A stretch of 44,002 nucleotides of DNA. Source: a virus (taxonomy: Duplodnaviria > Caudoviricetes). Of this stretch, positions 12,805 to 44,002 are shown piece after piece. Where the stretch lies: the IMG/VR virus record IMGVR_UViG_3300016722_000150, positions 1-44,002 of that record. The stretch is one strand, 5' to 3'. A program made the translations under genes and the position numbers. Within the stretch, counting starts at the first letter, position 1. The number at the start of each line of letters is the position of its first letter. The notes under the pieces were generated by a model, which did not search any database, was not told where the DNA came from, and was given only the letters and a program-made list of their open reading frames with translations.

Positions 12805-13599
12805 TTAGTATCTTTTTACCTTGTTTTTAAGGGAAATATACAAATCTCCCGTGTAAATATTGTACTCAATTTCGTAGATGTGAGTATAATTGTAATCAGG
12901 AATATTAAATATTTTCTCTTGTATAACTGCTGTCGGGTTACTGGCTGTTCCGCTTGCCTGATAAGCAACATTAATCCGAAAATTATTTAAATCTACAATA
13001 GCAGAAACCGTATGAATCCCATTGTATGCAACTTTGTTTCCTGAATAACCAGCGATTTTAACCGTCTGTCCAACAGTATACCCGTGATGCGTACAGGTAA
13101 ATGTTGCCTGTGCAGGTGGCCCGGTTACGTATTCGGCTACAGATTTTACTGAATTATTAAAATTGTCTCATGTTCAAACATCATCGCTTGCTAACAAGTA
13201 TCCTGTGCGATCAGTAGGTAATCTCAATTTATTTGAATTAGACGACATTTTTATAAATAATAACCCGATAGTTCCATCATCTCCATTAACATTATCAATC
13301 CGTAGTGTAGAATACGTTTTGGATCCGTTTACAAAAAATTGAGGAAAGTAGATGCCGGAAAAATCGCATATTGTTATTCCACTACTATCAGACACGGTGT
13401 TTTGCTGAATACGAAATGGAGAAAATGCAGCTAAGGCATTCTGTAACTCGGATACATCTACTAATCTTTGTGCATCATCGCTACCTTGCTTCGTGTACAA
13501 ATGTCCACCGTTTGCAAATATTCTGAGGAATCCGTCTTCTATTGTGCCACCAACAAGATTCGCTAATTGTCCTAATAAAAATGAGCCAATAAATTTCAT
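12805..13599 (-). CDS. Tail fibre-associated structural protein, 264 aa (2 TGA)
   Basis: Frame stays open past TGA at 13174 and 13168 down to a TAA abutting the terminator; HGYTVGQTVKIAG beta-barrel-like motif. Confidence 0.75.
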
Positions 13600-13615
13600 A
13601 GTTTTAAATCAAATT

Positions 13616-13638
13616 AAAGGGAGGTTTTGCCCTCCCTT
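13616..13638 (-). terminator. Hairpin, possible terminator
   Basis: AAGGGAGG/CCTCCCTT stem with a T-rich tail on the minus strand. Confidence 0.55.
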
Positions 13639-13660
13639 GGTTTATTAGTTAATTAAAATA

Positions 13661-14923
13661 TTAGGTAGGCATACCCGATGCGATTACATCAAGAACCCCC
13701 GTAATTACAATTCGTCCATCAAAAGCTGAATTTGATTGAAGGCTTAGTGTCCCATTTGTATAGTTCATGACACTATCGCACTCAACTTGATTACCGGTAG
13801 TATCAAAAAGCTGAAAAACAACATTATTACCACAATGGTGTACGTCATTAGTAATTTGAAAAGATGTACTGGCCGGTAGTGAGATGTTTGCGGAATACAT
13901 TTTAACCTTACTATCAGCATAAGCTTTCACGGCTTTTACTGTTGGTATTTCTGTATCAACATTATCATCAAGAAAAGCCTTGACAACTCCTGTTTTAAAG
14001 TTGTCAATTTCAAGGTTTGAAATGGTATTATTGTCTGCGTTGATAGTTTTGTTCGTCAGCGTTTGAGTTGCTGCCAATTTAACCAGGTCGGCAGATTCGC
14101 TGTTATCAATGCCGTCGAACATTGCCGCCGTAATGCCTGTCGTTGCATCTTGGTTGGCGATAATCATATCTCCAATATTCAACCCGGTTCCACTGGATGG
14201 TGTAGTAATTCCCGAAGCGCTCCCGGCAACGGTTACTTTCCAGAAATAGCCCTTTTTAATAGTGGTAATACCATTAGTAGCAATAGTTTTAGTCCCATCA
14301 AAACCTCCTGCCTGATACAGAAGCCCTCCTGCATATTGCGATTGTAAAGCTGCAATCTTAGTGTCTACATAGGTTTTTGCAGCCTTTTGAGACGCAACCT
14401 TAACATCGCTGTTCCCGGCCAATGCACCGTCAGTGTCAAGATAGGTTAACGGCATTTGCTGGACATTGTCTACGCTCCCCAATCCCACTTGAGCCTTTGT
14501 AGTGTTGTGCGGGTTGCTGGTGCTGGCGATGTGTGTGTCAATCTGCGCATGGGTATTTGTTCCTGCACCGCTCAGGTTTTGATGCACAATATTAGCTTCG
14601 ACAACATCAACTTCAATTTCATCGGTGGCCGAAGCCGTAACAACTATTTTGGTTGACTTAGCTTTAATTTTTTTAAAGTTGTGTACGCCGGCAACGGTAT
14701 CTCTTCAAATACCAACACCAGCAGTTCCGACATTAGCTGCTGCATATGGAGCTTCACAATAAACTCATGAAGTCCCATTATAACAGCCCTCCTTATTCAG
14801 GGTTGTATCGAAATACTTCTGTCCTTTCTTCGGGGAAGCAGGAGCCGCAGCCAAATTTTGCAAGGCTGCATTTTGAAGCTCGTTCCCGTTTAAATCTATA
14901 CTTACTAAGAATTTTTTTGCCAT
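13661..14923 (-). CDS. Tail fibre protein, 420 aa (2 TGA)
   Basis: Starts [19 protein letters not shown]; YNGTS[TGA] at 14765 and TGA at 14705; [17 protein letters not shown] and QTLTNKTI fibre repeats. Confidence 0.85.
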
Positions 14924-14952: not shown

Positions 14953-17586
14953 TTAATTACAGGTAACAGTCCCAGATGCTAACCCATTCCATGACAAGGT
15001 GCAAACATCTAAGCTATTATAGTCAACATCGACTTCTATTTCATTACCCTGTTCATCTTTCACTGTGACAGTCGGGTATTTACCCAGATAATGTTCCACA
15101 ACCACAATACAAACATTTGTGAATGATTTAGTGTAAGTTGAATCTATATTATCACTTCCTGTTCGTGCAAATGGTGAGGATTTATGGACGATTCTAAAGC
15201 CAACCAAAGGGTCGGTCATTGCCGAGTTCATTGATACGTTCATATACTTCAATCCGGTAAATGGTGTTGTTATTTTACCGGAGATTACAGGACAATACCA
15301 TTTACGATCACTTCACGCCTCTTCAAACCGACTTGCCCAATATTTTGAAGCTGATGGGCTATTTATTTGTTGCGTCGCTGGCAATCCGGCATTAGCTAAC
15401 CCGCCACAACCCTTTATAAAAGTATTTGCGATAGGTAATACCCCGGCATTGGAATAATTGTCCATTGTGTCATCGGCAAATAGGTTATCATTCGTGCAGA
15501 CATAGGCTATCGCACTATCCTGAATAGTGTAGAAAATATTGATTCCATCAACCATTTCCCCTATGTCTCCAATGAATCCTTCAATACCCCGATAGCTTAC
15601 CTGTGCGGTGTTTATCGTTACTCCGTTGCGGGTATCTTCATAAAGAACGTAACCGGAACGATTGCCAAGTCTGTTAGTCAACCCCGTTTTAAGGATGGGT
15701 TTTAAAAATCCATTATTGAAGACTTTTATATTTTCCTCATATTCACCATACGGGAAATTCCCTCCAAATATCGGGACGCTGGCAATGTCCCTTGTTTTAA
15801 ACTCAATAACCTGCATTATAGTAAGGAAGGCCTGCGTATAAATATCATTGAGCTTTTTATTCCATAAGGCAACAATAGGTCTTACCGTAGCTTTTGTAAC
15901 GCCAGTTGTCGGTATAACATTATCGCAGCTACTTCCAACACTGTCGTGAATATGACCCTTGTATGCGCCGGGGTATATGTAATCATTTTCACTGCCGTTA
16001 GAATTTAAGAAACATTCAAACGGCTTTAATTGTGAAAGGTGCTGATCGGAGATAAGCACAACATACCTGTTGTCGGAAGTTATAAAATCAGTGTAATACA
16101 GTTTTTTAATGCGACTTACAAAATCAGTGTACTCATCTCCGTTGATTTCAAATTGTGTGCTTAGAATATCAAACGATTCTCCCGCATGGGCGAAGTTTCG
16201 GTATATGGTGTATTTTGTGCCAACAGGGAAATTATGATAGTCTCCCGGGATGGAATACCATAATGTCATCTCATCGTCTATCTGTTTTATTTGAGCGTAT
16301 GCGTAAGTAGTGGCATTCAGATAAAATCCTACAAGGTCTCCAACCTTTACTTTTCAGGTTAAGAATTGTGCATGACTATCATATATATAGCCGTTTATGT
16401 CGTCTCTTTGCGGTGGAGCGGAGATGTCTTTGTTCTCCTTTGTTCCGTAAGAATGCTCGTTAACCTTGATGTATCTTACCGGGTCGATAATCAGTTCGCC
16501 ATTGGCATCACCGATAGTGCTTCCGTTGCCTAAGCCAATAATTTTAGCGTATTCATCGGTAGAAACATTATGAATATATCTGCTTCCTATATCATTAAGA
16601 TTCAACTTGTCTATCATGGTATAGACATTGCCTTGGTTAGGGCAGGAAGAAAATTGACCGCTTTTTAAAACCCCTTGCCCGCCATCCAGCATGTAGGAAT
16701 TAACAGGGTCGGTTTTGACCATAGTGTTTTTGCTTAGTGAAGGATTGAAAGTTACAATACCTCTTTCGAAGATATGGAAAGGAAGAGTATTATGATACGC
16801 CATGTTCCCAATAGCGGTAACGGCGGCGGCTTCATCGTCAATATTCCAGGTTACCCCATAGCACTGTTTTAGCAATATACAATCTTCTATCTGGTCTGAT
16901 TTTGTAACTACATGCCAGCTTCCCTCGGCATGGGCATAATAACTACCTAATGATGTACAATAAACATAAGACCCATCACTGGTATTTTCCAACCCCTGAA
17001 AGTCTTCAAAGGTGGCAAATTCTCCCATGTAAAACATGATTATCAATGTCGGTACGTATGGAGGGGTAGGAGCCTCGGTAGCTTTTATGAAAGTAAGTTT
17101 CCTCTTCATAAAATAGTAAAGGCTGTTATTGATAATTTTTTTCTTTCCCTGATAGGCTAATTCTATCGGTTCTTTTTCTTTTGGAGCTTTTAACCCGTAC
17201 CATTCTTTCAACACCCATAGCGCTATTCCCTCAGTTATTATTTCATCTAATTGATATAGTAACTGATAGGTAACATAACCATAATCGTTAGCAGCTATTC
17301 CGAATGTCGTAGTGTTGCTCTTTGTGAAATATGCCGAATCGCCTCCCTTTTTAGTCTTAAAAAATAAGTTACCAATGTCGACTAAAGCATTCTTTATTTC
17401 GGTTTTGATGAAAGATTCTTCATCAGCACTCATAAGAAGTTCTATAATAGGTTCTCCCGTCTTTTCATCTTTGAAGGTGCTAAGATGATACTGTGATAAC
17501 ATCCTTATACGGTTAAGGATATGGTTATAGGTATAAGTAAACCCGACATCATAATACCCGCTTAAATTTATATCTCTTGTGTACAT
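14953..17586 (-). CDS. Large tail or receptor-binding protein, 877 aa (2 TGA)
   Basis: Three track ORFs joined in frame by TGA at 16354 and 15313; N-terminus resembles the upstream gene product. Confidence 0.75.
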
Positions 17587-18131: not shown

Positions 18132-18134
18132 TAG

Positions 18135-18335
18135 CTATTCAGTTTTTTGCTTAGTGAAATTGCACAAGAAAGCAATGGCCGATAGTCCGATATACGCCAC
18201 CGATTTATAATCGTTTCATACCGGATTAGCAAAACTGATTGAAGCAATGACCGGAATCATTACTACGCAAAATGCACCAATGGTTTTTGCCACCACATGG
18301 TCGGCTTGTTTGAATCGTTCGATTAGCTTATTCAT
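18135..18335 (-). CDS. Holin-like two-TM protein, 66 aa (1 TGA)
   Basis: Hand translation MNKLIERF...CVVMIPVIASISFANPV[TGA]NDYKSVAYIGLSAIAFLCNF; TAATG-coupled to the spanin; TGA at 18216. Confidence 0.65.
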
Positions 18336-18826
18336 TATATTTTGATTTTAAATTTCTTATAAATGATAAATCCGGCAACAGCCAGTATAATTATGACAAT
18401 GGCGACAACATAAACCCATCATGGGATAATAAACCCCGTTTTTACGATGGCTTTATTTGTCGTATTTATTTCTTTTACAGTTACTCCCTTTTTGTTAAGG
18501 TCTGTCTTTTTATTACTATTAGTCTTTGCCAATGACTGTTCTTTTACCGCCTTTTTCTCGGTAATTTTTCTATCAATGACTTGGGTAGCGGGGATTAGGT
18601 TTCCTGCAGAATCCTTAGTCGGCTGATAGGTAGTTGTAATGTGCTCAATAGTAGTTGTTATTGAGCTGTCAGTTTTAGTGGTACTGTCAGTTGTTCGGGA
18701 ATTTTGAACAACCGAGGAATCGGTAACGGTGTTACTGGTCTCCAATGTCTTTTCTTTGTTGACCTGTTTAGTCATGGAACAGGAAAACAACATGATTGAT
18801 AATAAGATAAATGTTAGTTTCTTCAT
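18335..18826 (-). CDS. Unimolecular spanin-like lipoprotein, 163 aa (1 TGA)
   Basis: N-terminal lipobox LFS-C; reading through TGA at 18419 adds the TM helix WVYVVAIVIIILAVAGFIIYKK. Confidence 0.8.
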
Positions 18827-19439: not shown

Positions 19440-19733
19440 TTATTTTTTAATTCGTTCTTTTAAGATTACGATGTCTTTTTCATGCTCATCAAGGCGTTCC
19501 CCATGTTCATCAAGCCGCTTATCTACAATTTTATGAGTTTTAGCGCAACTAACTTTCATATCTTCACTGCTTTGTTTATCTACGGCTTGTGTCCTACGAA
19601 TAAAATCGACAAGGGTTTTCACTTCTTTAATGGTATTGATTTGTATTTTTAAGAAATACAGAATACCGCCTAAAAAAAACGTTATCAAAAATGCGGCGAC
19701 ACCTAAAAGAAATTTGTATGTTTCTACATTCAT
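19440..19733 (-). CDS. Single-TM coiled-coil protein (holin or antiholin candidate)
   Basis: N-terminal TM and RLDEHGERLDEHEKDIVILKE coiled coil; next to the endolysin. Confidence 0.6.
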   Translation of the reverse strand: MNVETYKFLLGVAAFLITFFLGGILYFLKIQINTIKEVKTLVDFIRRTQAVDKQSSEDMKVSCAKTHKIVDKRLDEHGERLDEHEKDIVILKERIKK

Positions 19734-20344
19734 TACTGACTTGATTTTAAAAGTTCATTAACTTTTTCGTAACATATTTTTGAAGATGCATCACTACCCA
19801 TAATTGCAAACACTCTTCCGGCACAGAACCAGGAGAACATGTCAATAAGCCTGTCCGGCAAATTTTCGGCTATTACTTTTTTTGAGTAGTGAAAATAATT
19901 TATTACAGGCGATGCTCCCGTTATCGTTTGTGGCAGTGGTATTAAATATCCTCTATCTACTGTGCTTTCTTCATCCGGGATGTATATTACCATAGGCTTG
20001 TTGATGGTTGCTTTAAGATAATAAAATTGTTGTAGTCGGTTGCTTACCGAATCTTCATCGACAGTTTTATTAACATATTGGTTCCATCCAACAAGCCCAA
20101 AGCGAACCATTCGGATAAAATCGACGGGTAGTTTATACACTCATCTATTATCCACCATGTCGGTTAATTGTACGGCGGATAACTTCCCGATAATAGCAAG
20201 GTTATTAGGCAGGAGCTCGCATAACGATTTGGCGGAATCGTCAAGTTCTTTTCCTATTTGGATACTTGCCGGAGTATCGCCGGAGCCTAAAGATATTTCA
20301 TCCATTCGGGCGGCCACTTTTATTATCAGGTTCGGAGTAGTCAT
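19733..20344 (-). CDS. Head-to-tail adaptor-like virion protein, 203 aa (1 TGA)
   Basis: Two track ORFs abut in frame at TGA 20141: DNR[TGA]VYKLPVDFIRMVRF. Confidence 0.7.
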
Positions 20345-22234: not shown

Positions 22235-23140
22235 TTAATGTTTAAGTGCAAACCTGTTTTGTTTAATGTTAAAATCCTCCAATGATCTTTCAATGGGATT
22301 CAATTCGGGTTTTGCTTTTTCGGTAGTTTTACCAGTAGATGAGATGGCGGGTGTGCCGTCGCCAATAGCTTTTTCCTCTTTCGCGATTTTTTCTTTAATG
22401 GCAAGGTTTTTACCTTTGATAACACCAATTTCTTTGGCTTCCTCCACTTTTTTGTCGTGGGTTACGCCTTTATAAAACTTTGTTAGAATATCAGTTGTAA
22501 TCTTACCGTGAGAGGTGTTATCCATGATGTCATCAATAACCTGGAAAAAGTTTGCAGCTTCCTCATCGGAGAGCTTGTTTTCTGTTACGAATTTTTGGAT
22601 TTCCTGCGCACTGACGTTTAGATTCTCCTGAATCTCTTTCATCTGTGCATCGGATTCAGCTTTCATCTGCTTGCGTCCGTCAGCATTTTTCTTCCAGCCT
22701 TCAAAATCGGGGTCGCCTTCTGCCGGAACCAGTGCTTTGATTTCATCTTCATCAAGAACATGAGGCAATGCCTGTACGAGTGTAGCTCCTTTGGCTATAA
22801 GCCGGATGATTTCTGCTACTTCGGGGTGGTCGGTGAAAACCGAGATAATCTCAGCGTTCGCCTCTGAATTTTTCTTTAATTTGTCATGGACTCCTGCTAA
22901 ATGGGTGGATGCCAATTCGTCAAGTCCATCACCATCTAAGTTTTCAACATCCTTATCGGGATAATGTTCTTTCAGGAGAGAAGCAGTTTTTCATACTTTT
23001 TTCGCCGGAGCACTCTCTGTTTCCGTTGGCGGTTCATCCGAAGCCGGTTTAACTTCCGGGGTAGCGTCTGTTGCTACTGGTTCATTTCCATCGTCAACAG
23101 GCACATTGTCAGGGTTATTTGGATCAATTTCTTTACTCAT
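22235..23140 (-). CDS. Capsid scaffolding protein, 301 aa (1 TGA)
   Basis: Acidic N-terminus MSKEIDPNNPD... continues through TGA 22991 into the helical track ORF; precedes the MCP. Confidence 0.75.
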
Positions 23141-23259
23141 TTTTACTATTTTTTAAAAATTGTATTTTTTAATCAATTTGAGGCAGTAAAATTGTGGCTT
23201 TTGTTAATAAATGGCGTGCATTTATAACATCTTTTGGTTCAAACAATGCACCAACAAGG

Positions 23260-23267
23260 TACATTTG
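23260..23267 (+). promoter_or_regulatory. -7 element TACATTTG of a rightward promoter
   Basis: TAnnTTTG match in the divergent intergenic region, with TTTG at 23233-23236 (spacer slightly long). Confidence 0.5.
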
Positions 23268-23286
23268 TGCATCATTACGGGACAAA

Positions 23287-23547
23287 ATGGAACTTAATGG
23301 AAATTTTACAGATAATACAACCGGGAAATACCGTCGGCTTTACGCAAACTACCTCCTTATATTAAGGAAACATGGAGCTTATTCTAAGCTAATGCCTAAG
23401 AAAATCCTGTATGCAGAGGCGGGGGATACTGTATGAATGGCTCCGAAAACAGCAGGAAAAATAATTAATAAGATGATTAGGGACAACGTTAAGTTGACCG
23501 AGTTAGAAATGGCGGAAGCCGAAAAAGCATGAACGAATGAATCTTAG
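23287..23547 (+). CDS. Small HTH-like protein upstream of terminase, 86 aa (2 TGA)
   Basis: KKILYAEAGDTV[TGA]MAPKTAGKIINKM completes an HTH-like pattern; the frame ends at a TAG overlapping the terL start. Confidence 0.6.
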
Positions 23548-25546
23548 TCGTGAGAAAATTCGTAAAATAATTTCGGAAAACAAGTCCCGAAATGCTGAAA
23601 TAGATGCGCCATACGATCCTGTTATTGGGATAGGTTCACCTATTCCAAGGTTCCAATTCAACATTGATAGCATAGGAGAACATTACTTAATGTTACCCAG
23701 AACAATGTTGGATATTGATATTATACAATTAATCCGTAGAATCGGGAGTATAGAGACTTTTGTACTTAAATATATCCCCGGATGCAGGAATTACGGAGAT
23801 GCTATTTCTGATTTTGTTGCAAATATCAATAAGCTACGCCTTGAACACGACTTTGAATTTTGGGCAGCTACATGCGCAAAAATAAAACCTAAGGCTGGTG
23901 GCGAAATTCCTTTCATTCTCAACCACCCACAAAGGAGATTGCTTAAAAAACTTGAGAAGTTAAGATTATCTGGTATACCCATAAGGATAATATTACTGAA
24001 AGCTCGTCAATGGGGCGGTAGTACATTGGTACAATTGTATATGGCCTGGATACAGCTTTTTGTTAAAAAAGGTTGGAATAGCGCTATTGTTACCCAGGTA
24101 GAAAATCAAGCCCGGCACATCAGGGGTATGTTTAATACTGTGAGAAAGAATCACCCGAAAGATGTTCTTAACTTTTCATTTGCACCTTACGAGGGGAGTT
24201 CAAAGAATAAATACATCCCTGAACGTGATTGCATCATAGGTATCGGCAGTTATGAAAAGCCGGATAATTTGAGGACGTTTACCTTTCAAATGCTCCATAT
24301 TTCTGAAGTCGGATTATGGACAGAGACATTGGGTAAGAAGCCGGAGGATTTAACGCAGTCTTTACGATCTACTATTCCCCAGCTACCCCTTACTATGGTT
24401 GTACTCGAAAGTACAGCAAAGGGCGTAGGTAATTTCTTTCATCGTGAATGGAAAGCTGCCGAATCTGGAAAAGGGTACGAACCAGTATTCGTCCCCTGTT
24501 ATGAAATTGAGGAATACAGGAAACCAATAAAAGATGTTGTTGAATTTATCAATTCGATGGATACCTTGGATTCTGATGGATATGCTTGGGAGATGTGGCG
24601 ATTGGGAGCCACTCTTGAAAGCATTAACTGGTATTTCAATTTCAAAAATACCGAAGGCTACGACAAATGGCGTATGCAGTCTGAGTATCCGAACACAGCA
24701 GGCGAAGCTTTCCAAACTACCGGACACCGTGTATTTCCATTACCTTATGTACTTAAGGTAAGGAAAAACAATACTGATCCTGTTTTTGTCGGAGAGATAT
24801 TCGCCGATAGTACAACGGGAGCCAGCGCATTAAAAAACATTCAATTTCAACCTGTTAATAAAGGTAATCTATGGATTTGGGCTAAGCCTGACACTACTCA
24901 GTTGGTATCTGACAGATATGCTGTGTTTGTTGACATCGGAGGAAGGAGTGCGGGAGCCGACAACTCGGTTATTCGGGTTATTGACCGACTGCCTTTAATG
25001 AAAGGATTACCTGCTGAAATGGTATTAACATGAAGCGGACACATTGACCACGACCTTTTAGCATGGAAAGCAACACAGATAGCGGAATGGTACGGACATG
25101 CACTGTTAGCGATAGAAAGCAATACGCTAACGTCGGAATCGGAAGATACGGAAGGCGACCACTTCCTTACAATCATGGATACCATATGCAATTTTTACGA
25201 CAATCTGTTTGCCCGCACGGATCCGGACAAAGTAAAACAGGGTATACCGATAAAATACGGATTTCATACAAACAAACAGACAAAGAGCATGATAATTGAC
25301 CGTCTACTTGCCGCTATGAGAGATGATGAATACATAGAACATGACGCAAGAGCCTGCGATGAAGCGGACACTTACGAGACAAAACCTAACGGAAGCCTTG
25401 GAGCCGTAGACGGGTGCAAGGATGATAAGGTAATTACGTCGGCAGGTTGTGTATGGCTTGCATTGGAGTATATGCCACTACCACGGATAATAACACCGGG
25501 AAGAGGAAGAGTAAAAAGAAGAATTGTAGGAGAAGCAACAATTTAA
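23537..25546 (+). CDS. terL: Terminase large subunit, 669 aa (1 TGA)
   Basis: LKARQWGGST, LHISE, LESTAKG; nuclease VDIGG...IESN...DDKV is split by TGA 25031 (LT[TGA]SGHIDHDLLAW). Confidence 0.95.
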
Positions 25547-25652
25547 AAATCAATAACATGGAAGCAAAATTAAACGCTCTTAAAATTTGGATGAGAGTTC
25601 ATTTACAGGAACCAAAGTATTATCAAAAATCAATGAAGGAGGAAACTAAAAT

Positions 25653-26000
25653 ATGGATAAACCGAAACAAATAACGAAAACAAAATACGACAACTTTTTT
25701 TACCAGCAGTATCTTTATTTTCATGATCGTTTTGTGGCATGGAAGAAGAAACGGAATCTTAAACAAGCGATACGGCTTGCAATAGAGAACAATAGGGGTG
25801 ATAAACGCACCTATTACGTTCTACCTGATGCAAAGGGACAGTATAGAGCGTTCAATAACGATGACATACAAACCCTGAAACGTTTTAAGATACTAAGTAA
25901 ACAGGTTAATGTTTACCACCTGTGCCGGGAGGCGGCATTCATCGCCACCAGCAACCCCCAAATTAAAAAATTGATAAAGGACAAATCAAAAGAGCGATAG
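25653..26000 (+). CDS. Hypothetical protein
   Basis: Basic 115-aa ORF after terL. Confidence 0.65.
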   Translation: MDKPKQITKTKYDNFFYQQYLYFHDRFVAWKKKRNLKQAIRLAIENNRGDKRTYYVLPDAKGQYRAFNNDDIQTLKRFKILSKQVNVYHLCREAAFIATSNPQIKKLIKDKSKER

Positions 26001-26216
26001 ATGGAATCTTTAGAGGTATATAAATACGGAACTCGGGTAACGACTAAGTTAGGATGTATACCCGCAATCATTACAGGAGTAACAATTAGAGGAGATTCTG
26101 TATCCTACGAAATAAGCTACTTCTATGAAGGAGAGCATATAACGGTGTGGATAAAGGACATGGAATTTACGGTATATGATGATGCAGAAAAAACTAAAAT
26201 AGGATTCAAAAAATGA
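26001..26216 (+). CDS. Small SH3-like hypothetical protein
   Basis: Beta-rich, ends KIGFKK; TGA-TAG stop. Confidence 0.65.
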   Translation: MESLEVYKYGTRVTTKLGCIPAIITGVTIRGDSVSYEISYFYEGEHITVWIKDMEFTVYDDAEKTKIGFKK

Positions 26217-26434
26217 TAGTACACGTAATTTGCTGGGACGGCATCGAATACGACCGAAACGCAACTCAAGAAGAAATTACCCGGGAAAAAGAAAGCGGAA
26301 ATGTGAAAGAGGAAAATGGAATAATCACATTTGATTTTTCCCTAATGAGAAAATACAAACAAATTAATCATAGCCTTGGGCGGCGTTGTAGAACCCGTGG
26401 ACGATATGTCAGACGCAAATCAATATCAAGATAG
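26213..26434 (+). CDS. Hypothetical protein
   Basis: ATGA-coupled ORF. Confidence 0.5.
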   Translation: MIVHVICWDGIEYDRNATQEEITREKESGNVKEENGIITFDFSLMRKYKQINHSLGRRCRTRGRYVRRKSISR

Positions 26435-31973: not shown

Positions 31974-34900
31974 CTATTTGGTTTTTTTAATTACTAAGGA
32001 CTCTGCCTTATTAAATCTTGTTGAGTCAGCGAGAAACCTTTTCCAAAGGGTTTTTCTTAATATTATTGCGTTATCGTAAACCTTTTGGTCATCGGCGGAC
32101 AAACTGTTTTTAAATTCAATGTCATTTTTTTTCGATCCAGTAAATGGTTTAAATAAACTTTGATGGAATCCATGAATTACTTTCTGTGGATTATCCGAAT
32201 TTTTAATGAGTTCAGAATATTCATCTACGGCTTTGTCAATATTATTATCCATCAATGCATTTCTTAAATCTCTGTATTTACTTGGTGGAAATTGTCCTGA
32301 ATTGTCTACAATTCCCTTATCTTTTTTCCATTTATCGACAAGTCCATAAACATCTTGTAATGGGGAGTACCTTGTAACACTTAATCCGGCTGCTGATAAC
32401 AAAGATTCAAAAGGGTTTACTTCTTTATCTTTGTTTGCTCCGGGAATTAGTCCCTTTGCACTTATAGGAATAGGAGCGGAGATAAGTTCTTTTATGTAAT
32501 CCTGTATAGGTTCTGGCTGGTCTCTTCAATCCTTTCCAGTGAGCATCCATCTTGCAGTTTTTCCTACAACAGGAGATAACCTACCAGCAATAAATTGATG
32601 TGGACGTTCATAAAGGTTATAAAGGTCTCCGGGGACTGACCTTAATCCGTAACGTCTGTTATGGTAGATAACATCAAACGGTTCATCGTTATGGTAATCA
32701 TCATCTAATAATTTATTTAATATCCTTGCAGTTACAAATAAGGTTACAGCCAATACCGCTAACGCCCTAAATTGTTCCGCACCTGATTTGCCGCCAAGTA
32801 ATACTTTTGATGCCTGACCCGCAAATCCTGCACGAGCTTCTAAAAAGTCCGGTGCAAGTATTGTAAGCCTTAATACGTTTTGGAAGGTTTGGTTGCGTCC
32901 CATGTCAACATAATTAAGGTTTCCATATGCTGCATTGGCTTGATGTGCTGATAAGTATTTAACATCATCTAAAACCGAAGGGTCTTTTTCAATTTCCTTA
33001 GCCCAGCGTCGGGCGTTTCGTTTAAGAATGTGTTGATATGTCTTGTACTTCAATCCCGGAATGTAATAAAGGAAAAGAGGTTCTGATATGGTTTTTAATA
33101 CTTTGCCTATACCCGGTATTTTATATAATAACTCACCGGAGCCAACGCCTTCCCTGAATGCGTTCATTGCATTATAATCACCGGATAGTTGTAACCCGTG
33201 GCGGGCAGCGTCCATCTGTTCAGGGTTATTCTCTAAATCCATGTGAGGAATATTATAAAACGGGTTAACCAAATGACCAATAGCATGTGTCCCTTCCTGT
33301 ACATAATGGAAAGTACTCACACTAAACATTGCTTGTTTGACAACGTTTTGAGTGTTCTCAATGCCTTTAACAAGATACTTGGGAATTAATGAAAGCGCGC
33401 TACCATCTGAATTATACCAGTCCTTTATAGCGGAACTTCCAAATACATTTTTAAGATGACGATGTATTTCGGGATGTAAAAGCATATCCCCCTGAATCAA
33501 AATGCTTGTACCATCATCTGCTTTGCCTACTCATTTCCATTTTGTTAGTGAATAATGATTTAATCCCTTATAGTCTGAATAATCTCCTGTTTTTGCTAAA
33601 GGGATAACGAGGACTTTTGCTGTTTCGCCTGAACCTTTTTTTATTGGTATACCAACACCTGACGGAATCGCAAGCGGTCTGCCATCTGTCGCCTTACTAT
33701 TTGATAAGTCCTTAATGAACTCTTTTGTAGCTACTGTCTTTCCAAATTCAGAAATATATAACGATAACAGATCGGCAATATCCTTTGATACGGTTTTGTA
33801 TCCTGCCTGTTCTGCATCAAATATTGTTGGGAATGTCCTTTTCTTCTGTGCCCTGAATGACTTCATTAATTTAGCAGAGCCAAGAGTTGGTTTTCCATCT
33901 TCTTTAGGTTCGGTATTGATTAATCTATTGACATAATTTTCAACTGCATTATCCAAAATTCCCAATGCTTCTCCTTTTTTCTGAAAGAAGTCGTAAATAT
34001 CACTTGCTTTTTTGGCGTATTCTTTATCCTTATCAGTAAGATTTAAAGCATTTGTGTAGTCTTTTTTAAGAGTTTTATCATTAGTTAAAGCCTCCCATTG
34101 TTTTATTTTGTCAACATCTCCGCCCGATTCTATCCATACATTTACTGCACGTCTTGTATCTGGCTCTGGAATTGCTTTTTTAAATTCAGCATTTATATTT
34201 CTTGCCTTAATGGCAGTCATTTGCATTTCCGCATTCCAATTGTTAATCGTTTTTTTAAATTCGTTAAAGTCTGGTAGGTCAATGATTTTTTTTCTAAAAT
34301 TATCAATCTCCGTAAATATCCTGTTTAAGAAAGCCGGGGACTTGGGCTCTGTTTCTTTTTTCTTTTTTGAAAACCGTACATCTTTTAGAAAATCCCCGGC
34401 GTACTCCGGCTGACTGTCGGGTTTTGTGGTTGGGTGTTCTATTCTTTCGGGAAGTACTGCGGATTTTCGTCGGCTAAATTGTTCAGTATCTTCAACCTTT
34501 CCGATAGCGTCTTTTTGTTCGGGTTCTTTTTCAACTCCTCGTTGTACATTCCCCAAATTGCTTTCGGCATTTCCCTGATTGTCATATTGCCGTCCGTCCC
34601 TATTACTTCTACTCTGTTGTAAGTTTCCATTTGTTATATAATTAAGCGTTTTAAATAATACTTCTTGAATTGGTTCTGGATACAAAGATAAATCAACAGT
34701 CCCACTTGCAATATCCTCTATCGTATAATTGTCCAAAAGTTTTTCAGCTGCAAAAGCCACTATCTCATCTGCTATCTCATAGTCGCTCATTTCATTTACA
34801 TCGTACTCTTCCGGAAGTTGTTTTTCTTCATCTGTTAAACGTGGGAGTATTGATACTAATTCATTATATTCGATAATATTACGCGCTGAATTGTGTGTTT

Positions 34901-37900
34901 GCTCGTGTAGTCACGTCCGTATTATTTCGTTTCCGGTTTTATGTGGGAGTGTATTTATGAATACTTTTCCATAAAGACTTAATCCACCAATAAAATAATG
35001 CTTTATTGCTTCTGTTACTTGCTCGTTGTAATTTATGGCATTAACGGAATTGGCCAAATCTTCGTTTGTTTTTACAATGATAGATGGATTAGCCGAAAAC
35101 ATTTTTTCTACTTCACGGATGATTTGCGTACCCTTCTCATACTTTTCTGATATAGTTTTGGCGGTGTCAAAGATTTTAGGTTTTATTTGAAATGAAGGGC
35201 TTTTCCCCAAATTGGCTTCATCTTTTTCAAAAAACTCACCCATTAACTTCTGAGCCGTATAAATTCCATCAGGTGTATTCTTTCTTTGCCATGCTCTTTG
35301 CGATGGAGACCAGTGAAATCCCCTTGATTTTAAGGTAGCAATTATTTCAGGATTAGGTTTTTCATCAAACATGAGTTGCACCCGTTCCTGTGAATGGTTG
35401 TTCATAATAACTACGCCCTTGTACTTCCCGACTATTTCAGTTTCTTTATTCGTTAAATCCTCTTTCGGTTGTACTGTTTCGGCAAGTTTCCATATTTCGT
35501 TATTGGTTGAAAATATGGGCTTACTATGCTTATCGCCTACCGATTTAACATATTCAAGTGATTTTTTTACATCTTCTGCTTGTCCATTTGCAGCCATCCT
35601 TTTAATAAACCCGGATAGTGAACTGACAAATAACGGTCTTGCCCCTGGATATTCTCCCTTGTCAATAGCGATAATCGAAGCTATTTTACTATCAAGGGTT
35701 TTTTTTATACTCTGCCACCTCTCATCATCTTTCTGCTCCTGTGGTGCAGCGTCTTTTATCGCTTTAATTGCCGTCTTTTCTGCTTTGTCAGCCCAATCCG
35801 AAAATTCAACACTACGATTATGTTCTGCAATTAACGCTTTTTGATTTCTTGCCGTTGGAAATCTTGCCGGGCCTGTAATCATTGGACTCGCAGTACGACT
35901 TTTTGCAGATAATACAGCGTTTTCGTGGCTTAAATATCCTTCTTTGTACCTTTCAAGTTGTTGCCACATTACGGAGATCTGTTCGGGTGACTTAGCCAGT
36001 GCGGATAATTTATTATACAACTCGTCCAGTGTATCTACATAATCACGTTGAGTTTGTGCCGCCCTTTTTTCAGGGTCAAAACTTATTGCTGAATATGCAT
36101 TGTAAGCGTGTTGATAATTAATGTCCGATGGTTCCCATGTTACAGGATTGGATTTGTCTTGTTTGTTTTCCGAAATCATGTCATCAATGACAAATATATT
36201 CCCATTACTATCTTTTAATACGTTTCTTGGTAATAAGTCTGATACAGTGTATTGTCCGTTGGTAAAGGACGTATCACTTAACTTTTTAAATCCAAGTGCT
36301 TTCATGTAGTCTGTAATCTCGGTAGGTGTGGCAAAGTATGAATCTGCAATATACCCCTGTTTAATTATAGGCATAACACTACGGTTATCAAATCCGGTAA
36401 ATCCTATAAGCTGATATTTTGTAAGGGGAAATAATTTGTTGTGAAGTTCTACACCATCTAAGAACTTTAGTATACTGCCATCACTATTAACAAGGTTATT
36501 AACCTTATACACGGCTCTTTCGTTCTCATTCAAATAGACTTCATTTTCATTACCACTTGGGTATGGCACTCCGAAATTGAATGTTTCGGAAATAGGAATT
36601 CATAATCCATTTTCTTTGGCAAATTGTTCCGTTACTTGAGCTTCTATTTCTTGTCTTTCTGCTCCTGTAAGGCTTTTAGTTTCCTGTGCATCTCGAAGTG
36701 TCTCTTCGATTCTTCTACGGCATTCAACGGTAATTTCCTCTGTTCTTCAAGTGCTTTCAACCCAGCCTCCGTTGACTCTTTGTGAAATTGGTTCAGGTAT
36801 TCCATCGTTGTTATTTTCTACAAAATTAATACGATTAATTGAATTGTCAACAGGTTGTTGATTATTATTTTTTAGTTCTGGATATTTTTTCCCTAATTTT
36901 CGTCTGATTGAAAACTCGGCAGCATTTACGGCTATTGCTTGATAAATAGTGAGTTCTGTTCCATTATTTTTTTCAAATCCAAAACGTGAACGCAATTCAT
37001 TTTCTGCTACCGGAGGAATATCTGCGTTGCTTATTTCTCTTTCAAGGTCTGCACGAAGATATTCTTTATGGACTTCATCACTTGACATTGGCGGTTTTGC
37101 CTGTTCATCAAAATAGTCCTTGTTACTTTCAGTATAATCCACCGGATTCTGTGCGTATTCGTTGGGTGTTACATTCGCTTTCTGAATGTCCACATACTCG
37201 CTAAAAGGTTTAGCCTGTCTGTGGCCATCGCCAAGCCACGTCCTAAACGTATCAATGTCGATAGGTGTAATTGCTCCTAATCCCTTCCAACCTTTGTCAT
37301 AGTTCTCCAAATAGGCTTGTTCGGCTTCCTCAATGGAGTTGTAACCTAACATCACCTTGCTTTCGTCAAACTCTCCGGTCTGTGGGTTGTTCTGGTCAAC
37401 GACAAATACCATTTTACTTTCAGGATGATCACCAACAAATACATCTATCTGATCTCCGTCTTTTCCTTTTGTACGGTTGAAATAGCCGTAATGACTTTGC
37501 ATCGTATGGCTTCATGGTTTTCCGTTTGGATCAACTCCGGTTCTTTCGGTTCCGGTAGGGTTCTCAATGGCTATATCCAACCCCTGAACTTTGATGTGTG
37601 CCTTCTTGTAATTTCCGGCTTCTTTTTGTGCAGGGGTAGGAGTGGTGTTTACTTCGTCGGGAGCAATCTGAACGGGTTCACTAATTGGAATTTCTACCTG
37701 TGAGAGAACGTCCTTTATATCGGCGTTTCTTTCAGCTTCTAAGTCCTGCATTTCCTTTTCAATATCATTAATCCTTTTATCGAAAAGAGCTAATGCGGCT
37801 TTCTTGGTATCTTGGGAATAAAGAAATGTCCCTGCGAATAAATCATTTTGTGATTCGTCGGTTTTGGTATCTCCGAATAACCCGTTTCTGCTTTCGAGGA

Positions 37901-40900
37901 ATGCCTCTTTCTTAGAACGCTCTATCTTAGCGTTTTGAAGTCTTGTTTCAGCATCTTTAATGCTCTCGTCATAGAGGGCGTTAATACGGTCTACTTCTCG
38001 CTGTTGGACGTCGGTGAGGGCTGGGGTTGTTGGGTCGGATGGTCTTTCTCCCAATTCCTGTGATCCAGATACATTTCCAGTAACCCCGTTGCTATCTCCA
38101 TCGCCTCTGATAGGGGTATGTCCTGTTTCTTCGCTATCTCCTGCGACTTCTGCGTCATGAGTTCTATGAACTCCTGTTCTGTTAGTTTCTTCGCCATAAT
38201 CTGCAAATATATTATTAATCTCTTCGTCTGTTGTATTATCGTGTGAATAAATTTCTTTCCACCCATCAATTTTATGCAGCTCCTCTTCGGCTTCTTTCTG
38301 TTTTTCGTAGGCTTCCATCTCTGCGATCTCTTCGGGGGTATAACCTTGGTTGGCTATTTCATCATTACTTACCTCATGGTTAGCTAACAGATCTTTTGCC
38401 ATCTGCTGGGGACTGGTGTAACTATTGATAACATCCTCTATTGCATCTCTGTAATCCTGGTCTGTATAACGTAACTCTTCGGGTTGGTTCTCTCACAGGT
38501 AATGTGCGATCTGGTTAATGGTTTGCCCTTGGCTTTTACTTACCCATGTGAACCTTGGCCTGCGTTCAGATTCAACTTTTTTCCTTACTATTGGGTCGTT
38601 CTCTTTTCCTTTCGTCCCGTATAGTTCGAATAATGAATCAGGGTGTAACTTTCCACCACTTGCGAAATATTGCATTGCCAGCGAACGAGGGTCATTGTAT
38701 GTTTTAAGCTTAACCTCTCTTTGTAAAAGTGAAAGTACTTTTTTACGTTTTACAACTGGCGTAACCTTCAAAGGATTTGTCTCTGAAGTTTGTCCCGTTT
38801 TTTGCGTCATTTGCTGGACAATTTCAGGCGTAACTTTGAGAGGTTCAGTTCCATCACCAGCCCCCGCCACCGGCTCGTTAACAGCAGGTGCAGCGGGGTT
38901 GATGGGTTCGGATACAGTCGGTGGAACCTCTTTTGTTTCTGGCTTGGTAGGTTGTGGCTGTTCTTCCGGTATGGGTTGTAACTGGTTACTTTTCTCTTTG
39001 CTATTATGTTCTATATCAGTGTTGTTCGATTGTAGCCGATTGTTTTCTTCTTTGTTATTCCGTTCTATATCAGTGTTATATATAATCTTTACGGTGTAAT
39101 CCGGTAATGCTTTTAGTGGGTTACTGTAATCGGTGTTATCGGTTACGGTATAAGAGAAGTTTGGTTGTATCTTCTCTGGCTTACTTTCGATGAAGCTTTC
39201 AGCGGCTTTCTTAGCATCTACCTCTCTCGTGAAATGGGTATCAACGTCAATGGTATTGTCTGGGTTAATAGTCCCGACATGGTTTGTTTTGCCCACGGCA
39301 AACTGAATCTTTTCCGGCTCTGGTTGGCCGGGGGTTGGTTTGGGGACATCTTCACCGTTCTGTTCGGGGGTTACTTGGTTCTGTTCCTGACTGGCTCGGG
39401 CAATTCCGTTGTATTGATCTTTAGGTATTCATTTCTGGTCTCCGTCTTCATTCTCAAACATCACGGCTCCGTCGGGGTCATCTTGATTGTCTACATAAAC
39501 CAACGTTCCCTTTTCTCCATTAAAGGTTACTGGCTCATTAAGTGTAAATGGGGTAGATTCGCCAGAGGGCGCCGTCTCATTTATAGGTGATTGGGGAGCT
39601 TGGTTGGCAACCTCCGGTTGTTGGTCTGTTACCGGTTGTTCCGGTGTAGATTGGTTTGTGAGTTGTTTGGGTTGCTGTTCCTGCCATGCCTGTTGTTCGG
39701 CTTGGTATTGATCTCTGGCAACCTTATCAGCGTTATATTTATCAATATCGCCCATTAACCGGGCATTACGGAAGGTATTAAAGTCAATAGTGTTTGTTTC
39801 AGTAATCGTCTTGGGGTTGATAGACCTTAACTCATTAGTGATAGGCTTGTTTGTTTCCGGGTCTATCTCTAAACCGTATAATACATTGGTCGGGTCGGTT
39901 AAATTATTGACATCTCCCGCTTTTATGATGTATCTTTTGCCTTCAATCGTGGCCACTTGGCTAATATTCGTACCATCCTGATGTGCTAATTCTCTAAAAT
40001 CGCTTAGGGATTGCATCGTTGATTTACGTGCAATCTCCTCTTCCGGGGAAATAGAAACTGGATTTTTTTCGATACCCTGCAATCTTACTATTTTAACAGC
40101 CTTTAAAGCTTTATTGTAAGCTTCTAATGAACTAATTACATCACTTACATTACTATGGGCAACATCATTCTTGATAATGTTTGCCTGTTCTGGTGTTAAT
40201 TCCTGTTTATTTGAAAAGGCGTCCCAGGCTTTTACCCTGTCCATCCATTCCTTATTTTCTGAACTAATATCCTTTGCCTGACGAGCCGCACCCATAGCCC
40301 CCATAAAAGTGGCCATGTCCAGTATATTAATTCCTTCTTTTGCTAACTCGCTGAACTGTTCAGGATTAGTACCGATATAATCTTCTACCGTTTTATTGCT
40401 TAGGATGCTTGAAATTGGAGTCATCAACACACCGGTTATTTGTTCCGGGGATATGTCGCTATGGCCGGACATACCTAATCCGGCTCCCACGACAGCGTTA
40501 ACGGCGTTCATTTCAAAATTGAATTTAGCAAGATCGGGGAACATAACACCTAACGCGATCTTTCCTAAACCTTCTTTAACTAACTGAGAAATCCCTTCGC
40601 CTTCAGGGACAACGTTACTTCCTGCGAATGATGCCTCCATCGTTCCGGCTACACCTCTTGCAAATCTATCCCAGCCTGATAACTGTCTCGTTTCTCTTAC
40701 TTCTGTATTATCATCTTGCGGGACATAAACATCTTCCTTTCCGGTTAATGCCTGAGTAATTTTGTCAATTCCTTTTCCGGTTCCAATTGTTGGTTGTAAT
40801 AAAAGAGAAATGGGATTAAACCAACTTCCTTCACTCATAAGATAATCAGGAAGGGTTTTTAAAGTTTCGGTTTCTTGTTTTTTATCATTCTCTGATTCAA

Positions 40901-41864
40901 GGTAATCGTGATAATCTTTTGATAACTTGGCCCTTCGTGCGAACTCTTTAGCTCTTGCCGTATCGCCTATTGACTTGGCTTCTTCGCTTTCAGATAGAAA
41001 TGCAAGGTGCATCTTATTTGACACATCGGGCATTTGCTCAGGTGCGACTTGTACGCCCTTCATTGAATTCAGGTAATTGGTTGCATCATCGTTCCGGGTC
41101 GGATCGTTAGTAACTGTCTTAACCTTTAATCGCTGGTAATACAAATCCGGGCTGTTGGGATTAAGCGTAATGGCTTTATTGATGTTATCCAACGCACCTT
41201 TTGTATCTTTTTGATTTAATGCGTTGTATGATTTTAACTGATAAAGATATGGGTTGTTAGACTGTCCATTTTTCTCTAAGTCGGAAATGACTTGATTACT
41301 CTTGTCATAGTTCTTCTCTTTCGAGTGCTGATAGGCTAACTGAAATTCTGCTTGTGTACGTTCTTCTGGCGTAAGGTCTCGGTTGACCTGATAAGTTTCA
41401 GATGGGATTCTGATTGGAATAGGACTTCCGGGAATGTCTATTCACATTGCAGGTGTCTTTCTCTCTTCATTAAACAAATCCTGCGTTGCCTTATCGTCCG
41501 GCATCATTGACAAATTACTGATGTCGTTAACGTTAGTTTTTGGCATGTTATTCAAAGGGTCGTAGGGCTCCTGAATAGAGTGGGTTGCTGTGGGTTTAAC
41601 GGTTCCTTTCGGCTGAATCGGGTTAACTGCTGGCTTTGCGATGGAGTAATTATTAGCCGGTAGGCTGTTCAGCGGGTCGGCGTCATCTACCGCCGGTTGT
41701 GTAACGGGCTGTTTGGAAGTATCCGGCAATATTCCAAATGGGTCATTAACAGCCTTCGGTTTTGCAGCTGGTTGTGGAGCCGCTTTTGTAACTGGTTTTG
41801 CCTGTGGATTTAAGATTCCAAACGGGTCGTTGTCTGTGTTGATATTTAACGAATTGTCATCCAT
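31974..41864 (-). CDS. Giant polyvalent virion/ejection protein, 3296 aa (9 TGA)
   Basis: Nine track ORFs in one frame, with TGA at 41442, 39429, 38493, 37512, 36747, 36600, 34911, 33531 and 32526; TPR-like, inorganic-pyrophosphatase-like, kinase-like and HExxH regions. Confidence 0.88.
34439..34630 (-). CDS. Overprinted 63-aa ORF in the giant gene
   Basis: Same strand, alternative frame, AT-rich leader; the host frame is a hydrophilic linker here. Confidence 0.45.
   Translation of the reverse strand: METYNRVEVIGTDGNMTIREMPKAIWGMYNEELKKNPNKKTLSERLKILNNLADENPQYFPKE
36644..36805 (-). CDS. Overprinted 53-aa ORF preceding the kinase-like domain
   Basis: MEYLNQFHKESTEAGLKALEEQRKLPLNAVEESKRHFEMHRKLKALQEQKDKK; directly downstream of a consensus promoter. 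Confidence 0.55.
   Translation of the reverse strand: MEYLNQFHKESTEAGLKALEEQRKLPLNAVEESKRHFEMHRKLKALQEQKDKK
36821..36850 (-). promoter_or_regulatory. Internal Bacteroidota promoter TTG-N19-TAATTTTG
   Basis: Minus strand GTTGACAATTCAATTAATCGTATTAATTTTGTAG, 15 nt upstream of the ATG at 36805. Confidence 0.6.
37991..38197 (-). CDS. Overprinted 68-aa ORF in the giant gene
   Basis: MAKKLTEQEFIELMTQKSQEIAKKQDIPLSEAMEIATGLL; helical; TATATTTGCA just upstream. Confidence 0.45.
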   Translation of the reverse strand: MAKKLTEQEFIELMTQKSQEIAKKQDIPLSEAMEIATGLLEMYLDHRNWEKDHPTQQPQPSPTSNSEK

Positions 41865-43201
41865 TAATTTACTTTTTGAATATTACCTGCCTTTATAGCT
41901 TGCTCAAGTTGTTCATGTGTGTACCTTCCGTATAAGTCCGCTTCCGGGATAACAGTTCCTATGGCGTGAGGGTCGCTACTTTTAACTATCTTGTAACTTC
42001 CTAATTTATAATGCGATGTTGGGCTTGCTGCTACTGCCTTCTGCATTGGCGTAACTACTTTTTTAGGAACCAATGTTCCGTTTTTATCAACCGTATAATC
42101 TTTCGCAATCTGGTTGTAAACCTTAGCTTTTAAGATTTCCGGGTATGCTGAACCGCCTGCGGCTATCTGGTCTGCTGTCAATCCGCCTGCTAAGTTAGAG
42201 AACGTTGTATTAAAGATTGCTGCGGGTACGGTTACCACCTTACCGTTCAACATCATAGTTGTAGGGGTATTACTTTTATTACCCTTTGTCGCATCGTTTG
42301 CATGGACGATATGAGCAACTTCTAATGCAGTTGCATTGCTGGCAGCATTTCTCCTCTCAGCGGATTTGTTGTTGTTGTCGGAAACGTACTTTGATGTTGC
42401 ATTGTTGGCTTCGGTATTGTTTACACTTGTTGCGTCGTGGTTCTTTGCGATATTTTCATTACTTTCACGAGTTAACTTATTCTGTTCGTCTTCATGATTC
42501 TGTTTAGCTAATGCAGCTTTATACGCTTTGTAACCGTTAAGCGTATTCAAAGCAGATTGATACTTCATAAGATTATATTTTTCCTCCTTAGCTTCCTGCT
42601 TAGCTTTCTCTTGTTCTGCGGCTCCTATCAATTGTTGAGTAGTGTTGTTCTGCTGTGGTGCGTAAATCTTTGCTCCGTGTGAAGCTCCTACCATGTTGGC
42701 AATTGCCATAAGCCCTTGCCCGATGGCGTTAAGTTTTGCATACTTTGCAAATCTTGCTGATCGGTCATCGCTGGGATTCGGTCTGAAACTTTCAACGTAC
42801 TTCTGAATAGCATCATCAGGATACATCTGTTTGTATTGCTCAAACTCACTAAGTGCGGGCTTTGATGGTGCGGCTGCTGGCGTTGCTGCGGATGTTGCGG
42901 GTGGTGGAACTGGTACAGCGTTTGCTTTCGATGTCATCTGCGCCGGAACAGCACTTTGATTTCCTGCCGCATTTCCTTTCGGCTGCATCGGTTCAGGTGC
43001 AAAAGTGTCTTGATAAGGTATTTCCGGGCGGTTATTTAATTTTATATCTCCTGCTGGCTGCGTTGTGGCGGGATGCATCGGGTTAACGGGCGGCATATCG
43101 TGGTTATCGGGGGCAAGCCCGATCTCGTTTTGCGGAACGTATGGAGGAATGTCTGTATTTTCCTCGTCATCTGGCATTGGGTTTATGTTAAATATACTCA
43201 T
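41864..43201 (-). CDS. Internal virion/ejection protein
   Basis: Pro/Ala/Asn-rich, with hydrophobic AIGQGLMAIANMVGA; TAATG-coupled to the giant gene. Confidence 0.7.
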   Translation of the reverse strand: MSIFNINPMPDDEENTDIPPYVPQNEIGLAPDNHDMPPVNPMHPATTQPAGDIKLNNRPEIPYQDTFAPEPMQPKGNAAGNQSAVPAQMTSKANAVPVPPPATSAATPAAAPSKPALSEFEQYKQMYPDDAIQKYVESFRPNPSDDRSARFAKYAKLNAIGQGLMAIANMVGASHGAKIYAPQQNNTTQQLIGAAEQEKAKQEAKEEKYNLMKYQSALNTLNGYKAYKAALAKQNHEDEQNKLTRESNENIAKNHDATSVNNTEANNATSKYVSDNNNKSAERRNAASNATALEVAHIVHANDATKGNKSNTPTTMMLNGKVVTVPAAIFNTTFSNLAGGLTADQIAAGGSAYPEILKAKVYNQIAKDYTVDKNGTLVPKKVVTPMQKAVAASPTSHYKLGSYKIVKSSDPHAIGTVIPEADLYGRYTHEQLEQAIKAGNIQKVN

Positions 43202-43297
43202 TGTTTTTTGGTTTTGTTTTCTATACTGAGAGGACGAGACTAATCGACTGGTTTACATCCTTTCTAAAATATTCATTTTTGGTTAATGTTATACCTT

Positions 43298-44002
43298 TTA
43301 GTAGCCCGTTTTAAACCCGCCTTGACCGATAATTCCTTTCATGGTTGGTGTGAGGGTAGACTTTGTTCCGCTTCCGTAGGCGTCTGCTAAGGTGTAAGCA
43401 CTTGCAGCGTTCCCAATTCCTTGAGCAACATTTCCCCATGTGCTTTGAGTAGAATTAAGAGAATTGTCTGCGCTGTTGATCTTTTGACCGTAAAGGGCGT
43501 TCATACCGTTCAGGTAGTTCTGTCTTACCTGATTTTTGTATTGCTGTCCGTAGCCGTAAAGCTTATTTACGGTCCCGGCGTAGGTCTTATTTGCTTCTGT
43601 ATTAGCTGCGATTTTAGCTTCCGGTGTTGCTCCGCTGGCTGCAAATTGGTTGGCGTATTTCTTTGATTGCTCTTGTAACTGATCTCTGACGGCAGCTAAG
43701 GCTGATTGTGAATCAGCGTCTTTCATTCTGTCACGGTAATATTCATCGTTGTAATAGTTAGTCAGGTCGTTTTCGCGCCTATTGAACAAACCATTTACTG
43801 TCGAATCATGTTTCTTCTGTGCCTGTCCCGATTTTCAGTTACTATACAATGCTGATGCTGCCGAAATAGCTAAAGGAATCAACATTGCGATTCCTTCCTT
43901 TACATTGCTATCACTTTGAGACAGATATTTCTCAAAGAATACAGGAGCAAAGGCGGTGATTATAAAAAGTGTTATCGCTGTGAATCTTACAAATCTTTTC
44001 AT
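43298..44002 (-). CDS. DNA-transfer/ejection protein (P22 gp7-like), 234 aa (1 TGA)
   Basis: Frame open from the ATG at 44002 through TGA 43835; LIPLAISAASALYSN and WGNVAQGIGNAAS Gly/Ala helices. Confidence 0.7.

Follow-up and report, generated by a model that had tools for sequence, protein, structure and literature searches.

Phages that recode a stop codon while infecting hosts with the standard genetic code were described by Borges et al. (bioRxiv 10.1101/2021.08.26.457843), and the parts of that preprint considered here present TGA-to-Trp phages (Agate, Jade) as well as the TAG-recoded prophages Garnet and Topaz. Both stop-codon recoding in late genes and its link to lysogeny are already published there, including the hypothesis that a code switch during lytic growth keeps the late genes off in the lysogen. 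According to the same source, tRNAs with a UCA anticodon were present in only 35% of phages using code 4 (TGA as Trp). A different route has been described in cellular genomes (Fakih et al. 2026, PMC13092985), in which a tRNA-Trp(CCA) of the Blastocrithidia type with a shortened, 4-bp anticodon stem accompanies genome-wide reassignment of UGA (B. nonstop, Ca. Zinderia); the main text of that paper contains no phage analysis. In this study, we analyzed the viral record IMGVR_UViG_3300016722_000150 over its positions 1 to 44,002 (this whole stretch of 44,002 nt is hereafter called the window), which derives from a temperate Bacteroidales podophage. In its late genes in-frame TGA codons are almost certainly read as Trp, and a phage-borne tRNA-Trp(CCA) is a candidate for their decoder.

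The in-frame stops of the window phage, like those described by Borges et al., are limited to structural and lysis genes; TGA at Trp positions, a standard-code Bacteroidota host, and a proposed late/lysogeny switch are further common features. Unlike the two prophages analyzed in depth in the covered parts of that work, which are TAG-recoded, the present case is a TGA-recoded prophage tied to a host chromosome. Moreover, the window phage shows no UCA tRNA, release factor 1 (RF1) or tryptophanyl-tRNA synthetase (TrpRS), and has instead a 4-bp tRNA-Trp(CCA) and a bias toward A directly after UGA; near-cognate decoding is not proposed in those parts of the preprint. With the Blastocrithidia-like tRNA it shares the CCA anticodon, a 7-nt loop, an open top pair 27-43, the absence of both A9C and G24A, and the use of UGA as Trp without a UCA tRNA. 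In contrast to the cellular cases, the action of the phage tRNA would be conditional and directed at the phage's late genes, while release factor 2 (RF2) of the cell is intact. The near-cognate route is known for protists and some bacteria, so what may be new here is its use by a phage, to which we give an even chance. Our literature search, which covered neither subscription journals nor the supplementary files of the two main papers, returned no report in which a recoded phage is connected with a 4-bp tRNA-Trp(CCA).

Within the late region (12805-44002), 23 hand-called genes contain 33 in-frame TGA codons before their TAA or TAG. Two of these were excluded, i.e., a terminal TGA-TAG (26214) and a codon upstream of the likely start of the gene at 18335 (18877). 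The remaining 31 internal TGAs, the number for which the earlier note had claimed that they join broken late open reading frames (ORFs) up to TAA or TAG, stand beside 85 TGG codons (31/116 of the late Trp codons) and no internal TAG, and are concentrated in structural and lysis genes. All five motifs which that note had quoted at TGAs (portal, pyrophosphatase-like, helix-turn-helix, fibre, and AKENGL*IP) are present. The 25 early genes (1-12771) have 31 TGG and no internal TGA (late versus early, Fisher p=3.4e-4), and each of the three TGA-ended phage genes, two of which lie in the early region, has a TAA or TAG codon directly after it. For these two reasons the early genes are code-neutral, and the standard code that the note had ascribed to them is to be corrected in this sense, while its observation of TGG without internal TGA stands. 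Re-calling of genes gave the late region an ORF cover of 0.94 under code 4, up from 0.75 under code 11, whereas code 15 brought no such rise (0.77). The same TGAs recur in two independent assemblies, the genome G001 and the contig L178, the latter 94% identical in DNA.

Aligned homologues were obtained for 15 of the 31 TGA sites; many of them are redundant, and the counts given below therefore do not represent independent events. Trp was the top residue at seven well-covered sites, most other sites were aromatic or variable, and Gly prevailed at one linker site. (Genes lie on the minus strand unless stated otherwise.) Trp occupied the column in 120/120 homologues at codon 64 of the endolysin (N-acetylmuramidase, PF11860; 18826-19392), and equally at codons 1451 and 1755 of the 3296-aa polyvalent, ejection-type protein with inorganic pyrophosphatase and kinase domains (31974-41864), which holds nine TGAs. 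At codon 499 of the terminase large subunit (23537-25546, plus strand) it was found in 43/50 (11/15 and 32/35 in two alignments), at codon 75 of the P22-like portal protein (PF16510; 29938-31971) in 10/10, and at codon 53 of the fibre/collar-type protein (13661-14923) in 35/44 of the aligned homologues. At codon 109 of the SU10-type major capsid protein (PF17236; 20812-22194) it was the commonest residue in three alignments (29/65, 13/19, and 30/64). The terminase has this single TGA among its 16 Trp codons.

Some columns speak against Trp. Fibre codon 73 corresponds to Phe, Tyr or Trp in 50 of 64 homologues, mostly to Phe or Tyr; codon 1706 of the giant protein corresponds to Gly in 77/119, within a poorly conserved linker where the adjacent TGG codon is also unconserved; and the columns at codon 68 of the adaptor-like protein (19733-20344), codon 50 of the scaffold-like protein (22235-23140), and portal codon 33 are variable. 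Decoding as Gly (code 25) or selenocysteine was rejected, with Gly in only 4/55 and 8/159 cases, no Cys, and no tRNA-Gly(UCA) or tRNA-Sec. Judging from the homologous columns, TGA in the late genes almost certainly stands for Trp, as the earlier note had proposed. In 89 distant capsid-gene loci the aligned parts contained no TGA, and the recoding is therefore recent in this phage lineage.

A prophage about 95% identical in DNA was found (via L029) inside the Bacteroidales genome G001, and its integration in the chromosome bears out the temperate lifestyle that had been supposed for the window phage. It adjoins a tRNA-Arg gene, the 3' end of which is repeated 115 kb away beside an integrase; this integrase can be assigned to the prophage only putatively, since cargo and remnants of the repressor module separate the two by 66 kb. 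The cargo (about 66 kb; G001 C3 286-354 kb, L038-L041) includes RHS-like genes, and the repressor module of the phage is found in it as two remnant copies; the cargo genes end in a lone TGA, and the repeat of the tRNA-Arg end alongside the integrase beyond it is at least 16 nt long. Two more short and related phage-remnant copies (integrase, replication genes) are located at about 727-731 kb of C3 and 493-497 kb of C2.

The G001 host encodes both RF1 and RF2, scoring above curated cut-offs, and its prfB gene has an internal Shine-Dalgarno (SD) sequence and the frameshift motif AGGAGG-CTT-TGA-C, of the kind described in PMC12421855 (internal SD, CTT-TGA-C; seen in the covered part of that paper). 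Furthermore, in eleven 20-kb stretches 19 of the 115 long host ORFs end in TGA, with an immediate back-up stop in only one. We conclude with high confidence that this host uses code 11, in agreement with what had been expected, and from it we take the window's own host to use code 11 with RF2 as well.

Of 25 window TGAs aligned to the G001 prophage, 21 are TGA, two are TGG and two are other codons, while one window TGG is TGA in G001; three TGA/TGG swaps thus separate the two copies, among them codon 144 of the first late gene (264 aa; 12805-13599; TGA at codons 142 and 144), which is TGG in G001. In G001 the adaptor-like gene contains one more TGA, at an invariant Trp. One spurious TGA pairing was excluded, since G001 is without the window's endolysin: in that slot (L037:5590-6012; C3 265590-266012) the muramidase is replaced by a non-homologous endolysin of the M15 peptidase type, with two in-frame TGAs of its own, for which a PDB search gave no match. 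For genes more than 85% identical between window and G001, the stretches downstream of the first TGA gave a dN/dS of 0.089, those upstream of it 0.215, and TGA-free genes 0.115. The late genes are under purifying selection beyond the TGAs. The idea that they are pseudogenes of a decaying prophage, or that the TGAs are assembly errors, could draw on the repressor remnants and cargo adjoining the G001 element; it is made extremely improbable by 31 TGAs unaccompanied by any in-frame TAG, TAA or frameshift, by the low dN/dS past the first TGA, and by the presence of the same TGA sites in three assemblies. The homologue searches returned no relatives of intermediate distance and no third copy of the phage tRNA.

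No tRNA(UCA) was detected in the window by ARAGORN or Rfam, and relaxed and intron-aware scans, in which a cryptic, intron-split or two-armed UCA tRNA was considered and rejected, gave only noise inside genes; only two T-loop motifs occur in the window. Likewise, none was present among the three tRNAs of G001 C3:200-360 kb, nor among 44 host tRNAs in a metagenome-assembled genome for which the search scored 150 of 292 candidates. Neither RF1 nor TrpRS was recognized among the phage genes. The second tRNA of the window (8925-8999, plus strand) has a CAU anticodon in an 8-nt loop and, with its open 1-72 pair, is initiator-like; it was rejected as a UGA reader, as U would occupy position 37 and the G001 copy, which is quite divergent, is a normal CAU tRNA with a 7-nt loop.

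Editing of the tRNA-Trp anticodon is known in trypanosomatid mitochondria, and a cognate UCA decoder could in principle be hidden here through such C34-to-U editing of a CCA tRNA, or because its gene lies in the left end that the phage sequence lacks, in host DNA that was not assembled, or on a helper element. The window makes up, with identical sequence, the initial 44 kb of L177, a contig of 77.5 kb, and is thus without the integrase end; the host searches had the scope given above, and Borges et al., in the part of their work considered, suspected missed non-canonical tRNAs behind their own low proportion of UCA tRNAs. Still, G001 spans the whole element between two att-like repeats with no UCA tRNA seen, the window scans produced noise only, and the strong codon-context bias described below is absent from UCA-tRNA phages, so that we regard a hidden cognate decoder as quite improbable. 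Several phage tRNA(UCA) genes (L331, L346, L344) likewise have an open 27-43 pair, and the viral contig L343 combines a UCA tRNA with near-total TGA recoding (ORF cover of 0.06 under code 11 against 0.81 with TGA read through).

The candidate decoder is a host-type tRNA-Trp(CCA) (8425-8498, plus strand), detected by ARAGORN, in which the Rfam alignment marks a non-standard pair and which we aligned with the prophage and host copies. It is 90% identical to the host tRNA-Trp. The uppermost anticodon-stem pair is G27·A43 in the two phage copies (4-bp stem, 7-nt loop), against G27-U43 in the host; both copies also show a U50·U64 mismatch in the T-stem, with A9 and G24 unchanged. A43, G44, A45, U47, and U64 are common to the two phage copies against the host gene, and the G001 prophage tRNA equals the host gene at positions 1-42. 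The covered part of PMC13092985 reports that shortening the stem to 4 bp increased UGA read-through in E. coli about 2.5-fold and that, of the open pairs, G:A ranks among the three most frequent.

The base following the in-frame TGAs (position +4) is also biased. It is A after 22/31 TGA and 29/85 TGG (p=0.0006), and a pyrimidine after 2/31 TGA and 29/85 TGG (p=0.002). In G001 it is A at 18, G at eight, C at two and T at one of the in-frame TGAs, largely at the same sites as in the window. A mutational origin was considered and rejected, because a bias toward A at this position is absent from the codon pairs for Lys, Glu, and Gln, and only CGA/CGG have a weak one (p=0.035). In E. coli, tRNA-Trp tends to misread UGA when the next base is A (PMC5289835, the part considered). 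Viral loci with a UCA tRNA, of which six out of 20 were picked by eye for their code-4 gain, which weakens the comparison, had no excess of A at +4, and a pyrimidine followed 29/62 TGAs in the four low-GC loci and 95/289 in all six; the difference between the window (2/31) and the four loci (29/62) gave p=6e-5. Five of ten tested ORFs from these control loci had a family match, one being a DNA polymerase that spans its TGAs. The findings favour a near-cognate reading of UGA that depends on the codon context over a clean switch of code; the earlier note had named no decoder.

We lean slightly toward the reading that the late UGAs are decoded near-cognately by the phage tRNA-Trp(CCA) with its opened stem, probably aided by a late reduction of RF2; that this tRNA is the main UGA decoder appears evenly balanced. 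In the lysogen, the repressor would keep the early operon, including the tRNA, off, so that the tRNA would be transcribed only after induction, and RF2 would truncate leaked late transcripts and leave virion and lysis genes silent. After induction, the open-stem tRNA-Trp would accumulate and compete with RF2, and UGA-A would be read as Trp. A second factor, for which no candidate was found, would lower RF2; the need for it arises since read-through has to be efficient for a gene with nine UGAs and for a capsid gene with one. Speculatively, read-through of the host prfB frameshift UGA, leading into a frame that stops after about 40 codons, could let RF2 synthesis fall further. The most far-reaching version of this reading is that the phage gates its whole late programme, having taken the host tRNA-Trp(CCA), opened the top of its anticodon stem, placed about one UGA-A per virion or lysis gene, and tipping the RF2 balance, possibly via the host prfB frameshift UGA; we put this forward only tentatively.

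Several observations weigh against the phage tRNA as the decoder. The published 2.5-fold gain is small, derives from overexpression and concerns C27A, not G27·A43, and an earlier in vitro test of C27A alone gave no gain (PMC13092985, in the covered part). Such a gain alone cannot yield a protein with nine UGAs, and RF2 must therefore also be weakened, yet no RF2-antagonist candidate was recognized among the phage genes, and Atlas searches of the ORFs at 8543-8896 and 9046-9435 for an RF2 antagonist gave nothing usable. The comparison of the phage tRNAs rests on two copies. Among sampled viral tRNA-Trp loci, 24/119 have a 4-bp stem, and TGA-bridged ORFs are not clearly overrepresented up to 10 kb away from them; G27·A43 belongs to the housekeeping tRNA-Trp of the tuf-secE operon in ten of 400 other Bacteroidales genomes (L279, L280, L283-L286, L288, L289, L293, and L294). 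Long ORFs were TGA-ended in 2/91 cases in four G27·A43 hosts, 13/22 in a fifth and 20/91 in eight genomes with a 5-bp stem, a mixed result confounded by GC content and kinship. In addition, A follows 11/20 TGA stops of the host, and the +4 A bias, although it fits near-cognate reading, does not tell phage and host tRNA apart.

The suggestion that other viruses with the G27·A43 arm (L001-L013) are recoded as well was unsupported by the counts of TGA-bridged ORFs. In this crude test, covering 10 kb on each side of a locus, such ORFs came to 15/133 at low-GC 4-bp loci (three of the 15 being the window's own) and 12/211 at 5-bp loci, with TAG controls of 8/58 and 14/111, respectively.

In an alternative reading, the phage reduces or blocks RF2, and the host's own tRNA-Trp then reads UGA near-cognately; the phage tRNA would only supplement tRNA supply or evade tRNA-cutting defences, and its open pair would be incidental. 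Both the 4-bp stems in viral loci without recoding and the ordinary G27·A43 tRNAs of Bacteroidales agree with it, and the +4 A context fits it equally well. In E. coli, most UGA codons are filled by the wild-type tRNA-Trp once RF2 is weakened, about 80% of the residues at UGA being Trp with RF2 attenuated (PMC11903333, the part considered). Nevertheless, it too would call for the RF2 antagonist that was not found; moreover, the hinge and T-stem changes are common to both phage copies though their 5' halves differ, and the pattern GC..GA occurs, apart from non-tRNA matches, only in the prophage among 401 genomes. We consider decoding by the host tRNA rather unlikely.

TGA makes up 27% of the late Trp codons, compared with 55-74% for A-ending codons in other two-codon families, and TGAs occur in 16 of 21 genes against 12.5 expected by chance (p=0.03). 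Such a wide spread at a low share would follow if a gene profits from a single leaky stop and any further ones come at a cost. A shift of the TGAs toward the 5' ends of genes was not significant (p=0.09). The low share and wide spread also suit a model with no switch at all, in which UGA-A is constitutively leaky in the host and the TGAs merely damp late-gene output. However, the nine UGAs of the giant gene and the one in the capsid gene demand high efficiency, and the host backs up only one of its 19 TGA-ended ORFs, whereas the phage backs up all three of its TGA ends; constitutive leakage is accordingly very improbable.

If near-cognate gating by the phage tRNA holds, it would account for some of the code-4 phages (65%) in which no UCA tRNA is detectable. 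The case offers a small test kit, i.e., a phage tRNA set apart from that of the host by five positions common to both phage copies, and an identified, RF2-bearing host. Its codon-context signature can be scored in any recoded phage genome and would separate near-cognate from cognate decoding. Finally, it places a TGA-recoded prophage in a code-11 chromosome, with standard-code relatives available in culture.

The closest cultured relatives are the temperate Bacteroides phages BF1-TP2, BKO1-TP3, and BS-TP4 (64-68 kb), whose terminases are 41-42% identical to that of the window phage. BF1-TP2 shares with it the head-to-head layout of capsid-scaffold and terminase genes and the giant polyvalent protein; unlike in the window, its late genes are annotated as full-length, and no tRNA was seen in the 42 kb examined. 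As in BF1-TP2, the terminase cluster (23194-26434) is encoded on the strand opposite to the other late genes; it includes a gene of 117 aa preceding the terminase (23194-23547, plus strand), with TGA at codons 81 and 113.

The right side of the window comprises tail, lysis, capsid, terminase, portal, and polyvalent protein genes. Besides those described above, TGAs occur in an 877-aa tail protein (14953-17586; codons 411 and 758), a 972-aa tail/nozzle-type protein (26489-29407; codons 237 and 786), a 181-aa protein with a helix-turn-helix-like start (29388-29933; codons 20 and 39), and an internal virion protein weakly similar to T7 gp14 (43298-44002; one TGA). Two membrane proteins adjoining the endolysin (18135-18826), with one TGA each, are likely of holin/spanin type, judging from their position and hydrophobic stretches. 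The left side encodes a repressor, a single-stranded DNA-binding protein, a Sak4-like recombinase, a resolvase, and a replication initiator; the gene of the Sak4-like AAA recombinase (3953-6064) is split by a LAGLIDADG/Hint intein.

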